Source: Octopus sinensis (lineage: Eukaryota). Taken from it: a stretch of DNA of 64,000 nucleotides. The stretch spans positions 68,014,001 to 68,078,000 of the forward strand of contig NC_042999.1 of assembly GCF_006345805.1 (NCBI RefSeq), given 5' to 3'. A program made the translations under genes and the position numbers. Under the pieces are notes generated by a model that saw only the letters and a program-made list of their open reading frames with translations, had not been told where the DNA came from and did not search any database. Shown here one piece after another: positions 51,570 through 60,190 of this stretch (position 1 is the first letter of the stretch; every line of letters starts with the position of its first letter).

Positions 51570-52436
51570 TTGGGTGCAGCCGTTTTGCAGGCGGGGAATT
51601 TGGCGCAGCTGACTGGGTGTTCGGCCTGTTTTGGCGACAGTACTTTTTGGCGCGGGAGGAAAACACGCGCACGCGCGTGCAACCACATACACGCATATAC
51701 ACGCACATACATACAAAAGCATGCACACGCAAGAGAACATACACACATACATACACATACACATACACACACGCAAGCGCGCACATACATACACATGCAT
51801 GTGCGCAGAAATATACGCATACAGATTGAGAGAGTGAGAGAGAGAGGGGAGAGAGACATTATACATACAAACATAACTAGATTTTCACACACACATAGAG
51901 AGAGGGAGAGAGAAACAGAGAGAGGGAGGGGGAGGGAGAGAAAAGGAGAGGAGAGAGAAAGTTACAGAAATATTAAAATGAGCGAAACATTAAAACATCT
52001 CATCTCTCTATATATAAACAGCAAAATGTTTGTCTGTGTGTGTGTCCTTTATACAAATCCACAATTTTTCAGTTAGAGGGCTCGCACTTTCTATGGTCAT
52101 TCAAAACCGTCCAAGGGTGGTCGTGCACATCTTTACATTTCCCCAGTCACCCCGCAAAGCCATTAAAAGATCAATAGAAGTGACTTTTTTGTTAATTTTC
52201 TATCCAAAAACCCAATAAAAATGCCCGAAACTTTATACGCCAATTGAATGCCAGCTAGCTGTATGTGTTTGGTCGGAGATTTGGACAGTACTCGTGTGTA
52301 TGTGCGCAGGCACGCAGCTGTATATGCATGCACTAGCAGTATGACCCGGCGTTACCAGGTCATAGTGCTAGTCTCAAATAAGTCAGTGTCAAATCAGCGA
52401 CGCCAAAAAAGCAGCGCCGAAATATCTCATACACCT
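51570..52436 (+). mobile_element. Second copy of the ttttggcg-repeat DNA element, hosting a Helitron
   Basis: Left tttggcg repeats, right cgccaaaa repeats; homologous to 44300-44750. Confidence 0.65.
52003..52371 (+). mobile_element. Non-autonomous Helitron, family B
   Basis: a|TCtctctatatataaa ... gtgCTAG|t, palindromic 3' end 52332-52372. Second copy at 58381-58740. Confidence 0.88.
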
Positions 52437-54154: not shown

Positions 54155-54405
54155 GTAGCGGTACACAGAGTTGGAAATTGTGTTGGCCGAATACAGAATG
54201 CGGAAAAAAGGACAAACCAAGATACACGGATCATTCGCAGCCAATTGCCTCTTCAGTCAGAGTCCGGAATATACACGTAGTTTCGCCCACTTATCTCTGA
54301 TACTACTCGAAACCGGCTGGGCCAAGGACTCAAGCTAAAAGCATTAACCCCCTGGGCAAGACAAACGAGTGTACATACACAAAAACAAATAAGTAAACAA
54401 TAGAA
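54155..54405 (-). mobile_element. Second copy of the 12.2-kb pLTR-like repeat
   Basis: Homology to 12185-12330; abuts (TACA)n. Confidence 0.5.
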
Positions 54406-54409
54406 AGGG

Positions 54410-55969
54410 TTCCCTTGGAATATGCCTTTGCAATTCTGTATTCTGTCAATGATAATACAGTCACTCTTTATGTTTAATTTCAAGATGGTGACCCACGATG
54501 AAGTCAGATCAGCTATGGCTTTGACTATGTTCACTTGAACTTTAGCAAGTTGAAAGGCTTCTAACATCCATGAGTAGAGATCAGAGTCAAAGGCTTTCTT
54601 GTAGTCTAGCCACACTGAAACTAGGTTCCTCCTATGCTCTGGCACCTCTGACATCACGGTTTTGTTGATTAACAATTGCTCAGTACATTCCCAGACTCTC
54701 TTCTTCCCAGTTGCTTGTTCTGCTGTGATAATGTTATTGGTTTTACAATGGTCCTGGAAGAAGAGGTTTAAGCATGCTGTATATATCTTATACATTAAGT
54801 TCCGACATGCAATTGGCTGGTAGTTTTTTGCCATGTATGTGGTTCTGCATTTGCGGATCAATTTTGTCTCTGCCAGAGCTAATCAGTGTGGTATGTTTAT
54901 GTTCCGATTGAGAGCTTGCAGGAACAGATTGATTAGATATGATCGGTAGAATGTTAGCTTCTTATACCAATATCCAACAATCAAGTCTCTTCCATCATGA
55001 AGTTTCTGAATTACAGTTGCAAGAGTTTCGCCGTCAATGTTGTGTCTTGGGCGTAATGCAGGAGCAATAACTACTTCGTATATCTTCCTGCCACAGAGTA
55101 TCTTGCTTAATCTCCTTCACTTCACTTCACTCCAGATTTTCCTCCAGAAGGCGTCTGTGTCTTCTCGTGAAGGAGCTTCTGTGATGTTCACTGCTCCTCC
55201 TCTCATGTCTCTGTAAACAGCTGCCTGGTTGCGGTTAAATTTTCTGTTTATTGTTCTCTCGGTTATTCTCTTTTGATGTCGGAGTTTTTCACTGACAGCT
55301 TTTAGCTCCTGCTTGAGGGTAATCCGTTTGCAAATGAGTGTCCTCCTTTTGCTGTGTCCAAACATCATTTCTGTCTCCTTCTTTACTTTCTGTTGGTGAG
55401 ACGTGTAATGATTTGCTTGTTTGCATGTAATAAGTATAATTACATGACTGTTGGTCTTCCATAAACCAGTTATCTTTTTCTCTGTCTTCAAAATCCATGA
55501 AGTATCCAGAGCTTATAGACTGGCGTTAATCTCCCAGAATGTGGATTCACCACAATGCTGTAAATAATCACCTCCAATTTCGTTAACAGCTTTTAATACC
55601 GCATCAGGCGGTTTTTTTTACTTACTTTGGTAGAGAATACTTTCCCCTCAAGAAAGTACTTCAAAGCCAAAGTTATTTTTTCTCGGAAAATTTCAGTAAG
55701 GGTACATTTCACCAGTATATAATCCTGGCTACCACTATTACTATAATAATCGTTGTGGTTGTGCCTGCTATTTACAATAGTTGTAATAAGGGAGCAGTGG
55801 TCAGTTACCTGAGCCAGTAGTGAAGTTTGGCTGGCAGGCACCATGGAATATGTTGGAATGTCGCTAGCTGTGAAACCACGTTGTGGTCTTATATCATTCA
55901 CGGTTTCGATTTTGTTTATAGAGTTGAGAAGAATTTTCGATTTTTTAATAAAGTTACAGTTACTAACCT

Positions 55970-55970
<1 letters not shown>
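54410..55970 (-). pseudogene. R4/Dong-like non-LTR retrotransposon, 5' part and N-terminal RT, disrupted
   Basis: LKQELKAVSEKLR..INRKFNRNQAAVYR..FWRKIWS; NYQPIACRNLMYKIYT..EQATGKK..CTEQLLINK..WLDYKKAFDS..KGIFQG. 5' end abuts (TACA)n. Confidence 0.88.
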
Positions 55971-56001
<31 letters not shown>

Positions 56002-56088
56002 TGTATGTATGTATGTATGTATGTATGTATGTATGTATGTACGTACGTACGTATACATATATTATACTTGCATACCTATATGCATATA

Positions 56089-56474
56089 CTAGCAGTATCG
56101 CCCGGCGTTGCTCGGGTTTGTAAAGGAAATAACTATATAAGCATTTTTAGAGAGTTATAGCAAAAGAATAGCAAAAAAAAATGGAAAAAAATTAAGGTAA
56201 ATTTTTTTTTAAATCGTTGACACATCGTAGATATTTTTAGAGAGTTACTTCCCTTATATAATAGCGAAAAAATGCATTAAAATGGAAAAATATGATGGTA
56301 AATTTTTTTAAATCGTAGACTCATCGTAGACGCGCGCTAATACCCAGAAGGGCTCGATATGAATCACGACCATAAGATACCCGCTTTTGGTTTAACTGCA
56401 CCGCAAAATGTGGGAGTAGTTAGGAATCTAAATCGTAGGAGACAGACACACAACTTCACTTTTATATATAAAGA
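56089..56474 (-). mobile_element. Helitron family A (left arm of large inverted repeat)
   Basis: Reverse complement of 32992-33387 with TC/CTAG ends. Confidence 0.92.
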
Positions 56475-57233
56475 TATAAGCCACGTAGTTATATACACAT
56501 ACTTTGTTATATACACATTCTTAAAAGAAAATGTTATTTTGAACACAACATTTATAAAGAATAAAATATTTTTTGGTTTTTCTTTTAAACGGATGCATAC
56601 ATTTATTAATAACTATATATAAGTGTCGTCTGTTTATACATAAACACTGTTTCATACTGCAATTATATATACATATATCTATACATAATATTACATAATA
56701 AAATATATACAGAATACGTGTATATATTTATGTATGTATAAATATATACTGAAAGAAGCTCGGCTCGCCAATTAATACTACCAAAATTTCAACCCCAATT
56801 AAGCAAAATTTAGAGAAAACTCACATTGTGGTGTGTAAATCAAGTGCTTTTCTCAGTGTGGGCTACAGCACACGCACACACACACACACAAAAACGGAGC
56901 GATCTGCTTCACTCACGCTATCACCCTAATTTCTACTCCTTTCTCTTTGCAAGTGTGCAACGATTAAAGTGAAACTATTTCTATAAAACGAGAGAAGTGT
57001 ACCTTAAACCACTACTCAATAAAAAAACAGCAAACAGAAACAAATAAATACATAACGATTTACTCCTCACACAATTTCTTCAATTAGAGTTTACCTATGA
57101 TTTTTACAAGTACTTCCATTCGGTCATGCCATACAAAATTTCTTTCAATTTCACCCCCAATTAAGACAAAATTCGAGAAAACTCAATATTTTAACATTTC
57201 ACTCCGAAAGCATTGATGTACATGTGTGCGTGC

Positions 57234-57280
<47 letters not shown>

Positions 57281-57983
57281 ATGGGATGTGCGACACAGAA
57301 AGTGTGGTGTGTAAATGAAGTGCTTTTGTTAGTGTGTGTAAAGAGACAGAGAGAGTACACATACCTACGTACACCTAAAGCACGCACACACCCACACACA
57401 AGCGGAGCGCGAACTTCAAAAGAAATTCGCGCGCTATCTATCTGGTTTGCCATTCCTCACACACACGCATACACATACATATATGACAGTGACAAACACA
57501 AACGTTTCAAACAACTACATACAAACACGTGTGTGTTTGTTATTAGTAAAAAAGGCGCCAAACACAACTCACTTCTCATTCGAACACATTTGCAAAAACA
57601 CACCGACGGTCGGATTGCCATAACAATACAGAAAAGGTAAATTGGTTTTTAATTTACTTTCTGTCGTTAAATTTTGGTAGTATTAATTGGCGAGCCGAGC
57701 TTCTTTCAGTATATATTTATACATACATAAATATATACACGTATTCTGTATATATTTTATTATATAATATTATATATAGATATATGTATATATAATTGCA
57801 GTATGAAACAGTGTTTATGTATAAACAGACGACACTTATATATAGTTATTAATAAATGTATGCATCCGTTTAAAAGAAAAACCAAAAAATATTTTATTCT
57901 TTATAAATGTTGTGTTCAAAATAACATTTTCTTTTAAGAATGTGTATATAACAAAGTATGTGTATATAACTACGTGGCTTATA

Positions 57984-58379
57984 TCTTTATATATAAAAGT
58001 GAAGTTGTGTGTCTGTCTCCTACGATTTAGATTCCTAACTACTCCCACATTTTGCGGTGCAGTTTAACCAAAAGCGGGTATCTTATAGTCGTGATTCATA
58101 TCGAGCCCTTCTGGGTATTAGCGCGCGTCTACGATGAGTCTACGATTTAAAAAAAATTTACCATCATATTTTTCTATTTTAATGCATTTTTTCGCTATTA
58201 TATAAGGGAAGTAACTCTCTAAAAATATCTACGATGTGTCAACGATTTAAAAAAAAATTTACCTTAATTTTTTTCCATTTTTAATGCATTTTTTTGCTAT
58301 TTTTTGGCTATAACTCTCTAAAAATGCTTATATAGTTATTTCCTTTACAAATCCGAGCAACGCCGGGCGATACTGCTAG
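57984..58379 (+). mobile_element. Helitron family A (right arm)
   Basis: a|TCtttatatataaaagtgaag ... gcaacgccgggcgatactgCTAG|t. Confidence 0.92.
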
Positions 58380-58380
58380 T

Positions 58381-58739
58381 ATATATATAAACGGCAAAAT
58401 GTCTGTGTGTGTATCCTTTATTCAAATCCACAATTTTTCAGTTAGAGGACTCGCACTTTCTATGGTCATTCAAAACCGTCCAAGGGTGGTCGTGCACATC
58501 TTTACATTTCCCCAATCACCCCGCAAAGCCATTAAAAATATCAATTGAAGTAACATTTTTGTTAATTTTCTATCCAAAACCCAATTAAAATGCTCGAAAC
58601 TTGATACGCCAATTGAATGCCAGCTAGCTGTATGTGATTGGTCGGAGATTTGGATAGTACTTGCGTTTATGTGCGCACGCACGCAGCTGTATATGCATGC
58701 ACTAGCACTATGACCCGGCGTTGCCGGATCATAGTGCTA

Positions 58740-58740
<1 letters not shown>
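58381..58740 (+). mobile_element. Helitron family B, lacking its first few bases
   Basis: Matches 52010-52371; palindromic end 58701-58741. Confidence 0.88.
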
Positions 58741-58784
<44 letters not shown>

Positions 58785-58793
58785 GATAGATAA

Positions 58794-58863
<70 letters not shown>

Positions 58864-59329
58864 GAAGATATTGTTTAACTGATGAGGAATTGTGAAAACA
58901 CAGTGTGCAAATTGAGCTATCCATTAAGGTGCTAACTTGATTTATGACTGCTTTATAGGTCCAGTTGGGTGGTGAAGAAGCCTTGATGCTTTCTGTAGGG
59001 AATAGTTGATGGGCCGTGACCGGTCCGTAAAGAGACTCACTGCCTCTTTTTCTTTTTCTCTTTGGACATGTATGGCATGGAAAATTAGGTGTTGACATTG
59101 TTATTCGGCATACATAACATGTGTGTGTATGTGTGCGTGTGTGTATGTGTGCGTGTGTGTATGTGTGCGTGTGTGTATCTTTTAATCACACACACCTGTA
59201 TGCATGTATGCATATATGTATGTATGTGTGAATGTATGTGTATATATGTATATGTGTATGTATGTGTGTATGTATGTATGTATGTATGTATACAGCTGTA
59301 AGTATTTGTATATATACACACCCACATAT

Positions 59330-60190
59330 TGTGTTGAGTCAAAAGTTTTGTAATATTTTGCTAACCTATTTGTTTTATTCGTCAAGTCACAACAGAAACA
59401 GCCTAGCATTCAAAGTAGAGGCCATCGTGTTGCGCCGTCTGAAACCACCTTTCTACCAGTTTTTATTTATTTATTTATTTTTATACCACGCTGATGTCAG
59501 TTATTGCCCTTCGAAGAGAATAATAACTCCTTCATTGAAGCGTCCACCTCCACTTGGTTGATGAAGAGTTGCGAGTTCAGGAAGGGAACCATGGTTCGGA
59601 AAAGTAATAATCGAAGGGAGCTAGGTCCAGACTATATAGCGGTTGCGGCATCAGTTCGATTCCCTCACGTACCTTGAGTTTGTTCCGGGTCGTTCGAGCA
59701 GTATGAGGTCTAGTGTTGTCTTACTGCAGAAGAGCTCACTTTTCGTTAACAAATGCCGGGTATTTTTGCCGCAAAATGGCATACAACCGTGCCATGCTTT
59801 GCTTGCCTGATACTTTCTGAGTGCTACTCGCAGGATTTGCTTTTATAGCTTAGAATACGGCTTCGAAATCCATGGTTTCAGGTTTCCATGTTTGAGATTC
59901 TTCCGACTCGAGCAAAATTTCTCGTTTCATTTGATTTCTGTATCTAATCAACGTTTGCACAACAAATGTTTTTGCTTGCTTCCGTGGCGATGTGGTTCAG
60001 TTCAAACACGTAAAGTATAAGTTCCTGAATTATATTGCGTTGCACGTTCGTTTGCGCAGCTTTCAAAACACATACGGAGTGTAGTATTGTACACCATGTC
60101 TGCGCACCAATTACTGCGATACTACCAACCTCAACGGGTTCCTTCCGCGTCTTCAACTGCTTCAACCACGTGATGTACATAACGCAAATT
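59330..60190 (-). mobile_element. Decayed mariner transposon
   Basis: ELILYVFELNHIATEASKNICCA (HTH-like N-terminus); LLQ*DNTRPHTA...PQPLYSLDLAPFDYYF (HDNA / YSPDLAP motifs). Confidence 0.82.

Follow-up and report, generated by a model that had tools for sequence, protein, structure and literature searches.

We find a single-copy inverted duplication, to all appearances real, inside an ordinary Helitron in the window, i.e. the whole 64,000-nucleotide stretch of Octopus sinensis DNA that was analysed. An inverted-repeat search of the window places the arms at 56089–56789 (701 bp) and 57669–58379 (711 bp) with 879 bp between them, and the foldback noticed in the original prediction is therefore present in the assembly. 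The similarity of the arms is far above chance expectation. The window contains no N and sits on a 174-Mb contig of the 2.72-Gb genome.

The right-hand part is a resident copy of a long (1.7-kb) non-autonomous Helitron, termed C-A (56783..58379, plus strand), which is colinear with its family but lacks the 5' 137 bp. It belongs to the long subfamily, with the copies at L005 and L023 as its nearest relatives. Still on the plus strand, an unduplicated spacer of long-element body (879 bp, 56790..57668) is followed by the inner 315 bp of the right arm (57669..57983), which are also element body and carry G57741, and by the Helitron A module of 396 bp (57984..58379). The latter runs from TC to CTAG, shares T58344 with the left arm and has T58175 and T58352 as private alleles. 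The left arm contains the same two segments on the minus strand. Its A module (386 bp, 56089..56474) has its CTAG pointing outwards, 1-bp and 9-bp deletions, four private substitutions and the shared T at 56124. Its 315 bp of inverted long-element body (56475..56789) carry the shared private G at 56717 and arm-private substitutions at 56684 and 56694. The single-copy left flank (56056..56088, plus strand) ends in GCATATA, i.e. ...ATGCATATA, and its last five nucleotides, ATATA (56084–56088), are complementary to the TATAT just past the right CTAG and form the putative priming end.

Aligned pairwise, the arms differ by eight substitutions, one 1-bp indel and one 9-bp indel over 701 aligned bases. 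Two of the eight substitutions lie in the inner 315 bp, as expected from the roughly two mismatches seen initially. MAFFT gave 11 arm substitutions, a count inflated around the 9-bp gap, and the pairwise value is used here. Both outer boundaries coincide with CTAG ends, as first noticed, with CTAG followed by T on each side. Homology extending well beyond these ends had been named as a warning sign; it stops after 5 bp (TATAT), and the outer flanks of the left and right arms are unlike each other. Logan contigs from 4 of 24 runs, searched with 55650–57220, were swamped by family copies. With 72 bp spanning the central junction, the same number of runs gave 174 records, where the longest piece was at most 40 bp among the 32 matches listed and none of these bridged the junction; Logan contigs drop rare paths, and one of the four runs was devoid of any left-side cover at the junction. 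Loose contig ends near the junction in the four runs were normal family continuations only.

A genome search with the inner 317 bp returned many full-length matches at 95–100% identity. The inner segment lies upstream of Helitron A, in a single orientation, in 47 loci (28 from the search and 19 by position; a few may be haplotype duplicates), and in most of these the spacer lies upstream of the inner segment in turn. The family head begins TCTCTTATTATAAAAGG, beyond which the flanks diverge; it was located in 24 of the 25 copies examined, where it mostly reads TCTCTTATT. The copies measure 1434–1743 bp. Because spacer, inner part and A are colinear across the family copies, they together form one non-autonomous Helitron with Helitron A as its 3' module. 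Each arm does consist of Helitron A plus about 315 bp, as was originally described, but these 315 bp are not an inner flank: like the spacer, they are the body of the long Helitron. The argument that independent insertions would not have duplicated a flank therefore falls. In the window copy the first 137 bp are missing, and their position is taken by a second, inverted copy of the element's own last 711 bp. The 5'-TC of the A module is found at 57984, and the TC head of the long family is missing. The 35-nt central junction matches once in the genome, and a second inverted cap occurs in none of the other 47 copies (1.5–2.5 kb fetched per locus), which answers in the negative whether copies of the inner part and spacer always carry both caps. 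Nor did we find dispersed copies with long inverted repeats as termini, as in a foldback or TIR transposon or a MITE; the arrangement is single-copy and the family is asymmetric. Seven loci (L074, L075, L076, L080, L082, L086 and L088) contain about 1.05–1.1 kb of extra sequence between nt 205 and 206 of the inner segment, and this insert appears to mark a subfamily of the long element.

Helitron A is also abundant on its own, a 31-mer from its 3' part having 14,800 exact matches genome-wide. Its CTAG end is followed by T in 75 of 77 distinct ends, and its last 45 nt fold weakly (−2.9 kcal/mol with DNA parameters). The flanks would fit insertion between A and T without a target duplication; a genome search with the pattern of the left flank hit a single place and gave no empty site. 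Frames matching PF14214 (RepHel) reach 1846 aa in this genome, and at five of ten fetched loci an A-like terminus lies downstream of a long RepHel frame, matching A at 30 of the last 35 nt in four loci and at 25 of the last 27 nt in one. These sequences indicate that the genome contains autonomous RepHel elements whose 3' ends are related to that of A; they are candidate movers of A. Four RepHel frames of 1720–1846 aa have no stops (C12599, C12605, C4:158760204 and C1:119634687) and possibly belong to intact autonomous Helitrons.

The common origin of the arms is apparent from the alleles that they share. The sequence around G57741 has two exact matches genome-wide, namely the two arms, compared with 34 matches for the version with A, and G is absent from all 43 aligned family copies. 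T58344 is found in 180 of the 14,800 exact matches (14,620 read otherwise) and in none of the 47 family copies. As these two alleles are spaced 603 bp apart, nearly the whole arm is co-derived, and both arms descend from one molecule. No donor carrying G57741 is found in the assembly outside the two arms, which favours the resident copy as the template. The shared variants pointed out initially are of unequal value. While gatgtgtc and ccttaatt are subfamily alleles, found in 38 of the 41 copies of the family, and both arms simply have the family majority base at aaaagcggg, aaaggaaat (T58344) is indeed rare; the private G57741 had gone unnamed. The view that the arms are not independent insertions thus holds, with private shared alleles rather than a duplicated flank as the reason. 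Since the split the right arm has acquired two substitutions and the left arm six substitutions and two indels, an asymmetry with p = 0.29. With a median of 4.1 private substitutions per 700 bp in the family, arm divergence cannot tell duplication at insertion from later duplication. The left-arm changes lean towards A>G in the element sense (three of the six private ones, each at the final A of TATA; p = 0.03, post hoc).

The central join (56783..56789, plus strand) is a 7-bp inverted microhomology, AAAATTT, corresponding to element nt 138–144, with AAATTTT at 57669–57675 as its partner; at the local composition the chance of such a match is about 8e-4. The left join reads ATATA/CTAG. It allows two readings, namely the junction left by a normal 3' insertion, or priming by the left flank, through 5 bp, on the TATAT past the right CTAG. 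TATAT follows 27 of 77 Helitron A ends, and the 5-bp match at the left join hence also fits ordinary insertion. ATATA is the commonest context before the family 5' end (17 of 45).

On its right side the structure abuts Helitron B (58380..58740, plus strand), a member of an older family whose other copies are 86–95% identical. The A/B junction has 36 matches in the genome, after varied upstream elements. We considered that the long element and Helitron B might move as one unit and rejected this, the B copies of the window and of L002 being only 91% alike. Head-to-tail Helitron junctions are frequent genome-wide, with 311 tandems at A ends and 36 A/B junctions (window 58376–58395). In such tandems the downstream element often lacks its first two or more bases, as in CTAG/TCTTATT for TCTCTTATT and CTAG/TTATATAT for TCTTTATAT; the L002 tandem has no displaced TC upstream. 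Helitron B ends (58700–58740 and 52330–52372) form a near-perfect hairpin of about 41 nt with its stem running into the terminal CTAG, different from the usual short subterminal hairpin, and the last 50 nt fold strongly (−15.8 kcal/mol). In the L002 copy of Helitron B the second hairpin arm is deleted and the CTAG end is kept. To the left of the structure, fragmented minus-strand frames at 54253–55700 look by eye like a LINE reverse transcriptase; they give no Pfam match at 0.001. Rfam gives no matches in 55000–60000. A search for a host gene, of a kind that would miss short exons, covered 145 of the 152 filtered frames from 114 kb and gave only transposon domains, together with one weak C2H2 match about 70 kb away.

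For the origin of the structure we lean, at a little under even confidence, towards two successive template switches at the donor site while the element was being mobilised by peel-and-paste, with priming just past the 3' end. In the Helraiser model, as presented in the available part of PMC5876387, the plus strand is nicked at the 5' end and peeled away from a fork at the donor; both strands are cleaved at the 3' end in vitro (PMC4778049, in extract). Here, peeling by the transposase would start from a plus-strand nick at the 5' end of the element and proceed as far as its 3' end. The left flank (...ATATA), its 3'-OH now free, would then anneal to the TATAT past the CTAG on the displaced plus strand, and 711 nt would be copied backwards from the CTAG. 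Finally, the nascent end AAAATTT would rejoin the minus strand at element nt 138–144 and synthesis would resume. In a mirror version, the exposed minus strand would break near nt 144, snap back over the 879-nt loop and run to the 3' end; this version and the flank-priming version predict identical sequence. Such a switch would use single-stranded DNA already supplied by peeling, and would require neither an outside donor nor local hopping.

The inverted copy starts at the 3' terminus of the element, and the TATAT cluster used is the 3'-terminal one of 15–16 within 1.1–1.5 kb of the fold. This 1-in-15 coincidence lends modest support to a role for the transposase. The structure reads as a microhomology template-switch foldback, for which a tie to the Helitron fork is plausible. 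An inverted duplication made by strand switching in rolling-circle transposition, one of two alternatives initially proposed, is thus our best, though inferred, reading, and we place it at the donor site. Against the donor-site switch it must be said that there is one event only, and that the excess of changes in the left arm over the right arm is unexplained. Having a 3' end on either side and lacking an outer 5' end, the structure is predicted to be immobile as a unit; inside it, both A modules still have a TC start of their own.

A repair or replication foldback free of transposase would give the same product: a break near element nt 144, snap-back priming on the 7-bp stem, synthesis and joining to the left flank at TATAT, or, in a variant, annealing to what little was left of a solo A end. 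The homologue's allele could even have served as the template, and the event would then be younger than the arm divergence suggests. Both joins show microhomology, and yeast inversions are described, in the accessible portion of PMC7467729, as using stems down to 4 bp, loops of up to thousands of nucleotides and resolution through secondary homology. We nevertheless consider this route unlikely, though it is to be taken seriously, as it must land on the 3'-terminal TATAT cluster out of 15–16 and must expose about 0.9–1.6 kb of single-stranded DNA; the contribution of any earlier solo A is limited to its last 35 bp, because T58344 is shared by the arms. It is rather improbable that a second full copy was inserted head-to-head, through local re-insertion or independently with subsequent conversion, and that the resulting unstable palindrome then lost its centre by a deletion at the AAAATTT microhomology. 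This would explain the canonical left CTAG/T end directly, given the T after 75 of 77 ends, and opposite-orientation self-insertion with loss of the inner termini has been proposed for Fusarium Helitrons (PMC5148889, part of the text). Close head-to-head pairs do exist at L026, L050, L064 and L082. However, the pairs that were aligned (L050, L064 and L082) are only 83–86% alike and are hence independent variants; Helraiser showed no local hopping or clustering at donors in 701 re-insertions, according to the available text of PMC4778049; and, for an independent copy, conversion would have to have spanned 603 bp or more. As an observation in its own right, these pairs (L026:118-907, L082:2883-4038, L050 and L064) combine different Helitron variants 80–300 bp apart, which suggests a shared insertion preference beside Helitron 5' ends.

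The 1.1% difference between the arms could be allelic, as it would be had a chimeric read or a misjoining of two haplotypes at a repeat created the foldback. We regard such an assembly artefact as very unlikely: two joins are needed, one of them with just a 7-bp overlap, the two outer flanks differ, and the left arm retains the ancestral C at the position of 58352, 8 bp from the derived T at that of 58344, so that it is neither a copy of the assembled right arm nor polished to the family consensus. Hardly any weight is left for an RNA-templated origin, where a retroelement enzyme would copy one transcript from both cut ends, leaving two arms truncated at the 5' side with their 3' ends outward, and the left arm would stem from partly edited RNA. 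Changes of A>G make up three of six left-private and four of eight derived substitutions versus 27 of 212 for the family (both comparisons post hoc, with p = 0.03 and p = 0.012). Yet one of the 47 ordinary copies also has three A>G changes, the right copy has one among ten private changes, no donor with G57741 exists elsewhere, the sequence has no poly(A) tail, and the right join is the recurrent Helitron A/B junction (36 matches). The other initial proposal, a composite element that moves as a unit between two CTAG termini, accounts for the canonical CTAG/T at both outer ends and has to be given up almost entirely: the junction is single-copy, not one of 47 copies is two-capped, and an outer 5' TC is lacking, a terminus that Helraiser requires (PMC4778049, excerpted text).

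To judge from the sequences, this is a one-off rearrangement in this genome and no new mobile element. Frequent switches of this kind would be expected to leave solo A elements with outward-facing ends lying closer together than two complete copies allow. A search for outward-facing pairs of A ends with total lengths of 322–352 or 382–412 bp gave none among about 15,000 A ends, while a control search of the same form returned 311 head-to-tail matches. The two length windows cover 14% of the expected lengths, which under the assumption of uniform breakpoints caps the frequency at about 0.14% of solo copies. The absence of outward pairs in both length ranges indicates that such events are rare. 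A literature search over titles and abstract openings, with subscription journals mostly outside its range, gave no Helitron foldback with two 3' ends, and the available parts of PMC13286980, PMC13282606 and PMC13317346 contain nothing on such a structure.

If transcribed, the arms would form a stable duplex (computed energy −1128 kcal/mol), the potential ADAR or siRNA substrate of the original prediction. Close inverted pairs of Helitron A are common, three pairs less than 1.2 kb apart having been picked from the first 100 places of an exact-match search for Helitron A, and for this reason the site is predicted to be no different in kind as a potential source of dsRNA, only longer and more perfect. 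Other inverted repeats were seen at L069:275-1271 and L069:3507-3958, with 231-bp and 171-bp arms of 99% identity; these are probably young TIR elements.

Possibly, though with clear reservations on our part, the structure is a donor-site scar of peel-and-paste transposition, in which a fork opened by the transposase allowed the 3' end of the flank to switch onto the peeled strand at the 3' terminus. If this is true, Helitrons rearrange the sites that they leave and create there long, nearly perfect inverted repeats with Helitron ends as their borders; a survey of genomes for such scars could then supply in vivo evidence for the donor-fork model. The Helitron donor fork is deduced mainly from one reconstructed element in cultured cells, and a natural rearrangement with switch points at both element ends would be a genomic trace of it. 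It would also provide a route by which Helitrons could create long hairpin-forming DNA. The weight of one rare event is modest.

The elements involved resemble Helitrons of the Helibat/Helraiser type in their 5'-TC, their CTAG-3', the T after the 3' end and a GC-rich subterminal motif, as well as in their head-to-tail tandems and composites ending in the 3' terminus of the downstream element (PMC4778049, from the part available). The window copy departs from these in lacking a 5' terminus, in its extra inverted 3' terminus, in being single-copy and in its predicted immobility. Composite FoHelis likewise combine two opposed Helitron copies that have lost their inner termini; they are proposed to have one 5' and one 3' end and to be mobile, whereas the structure in the window has two outer 3' ends and co-derived arms (PMC5148889, in its accessible section). 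With yeast foldback inversions it shares an inverted duplication, a short fold stem, a long loop and a second join (PMC7467729, partial text). Those are either chromosome rearrangements recovered by selection or short insertions where breaks had been induced, while the case in the window is interstitial, measures only 711 bp and has a transposon terminus as its border. In four-point template switches (FoSTeS/MMBIR), a short segment gives way, through two microhomology switches, to the reverse complement of a sequence lying downstream. The window copy likewise combines two microhomology switches with a segment replaced by inverted downstream sequence. What sets it apart is where the switches fall, one at the 3' terminus of the Helitron and the other, by prediction, at its 5' terminus; this speaks for a fork that the transposase had opened.
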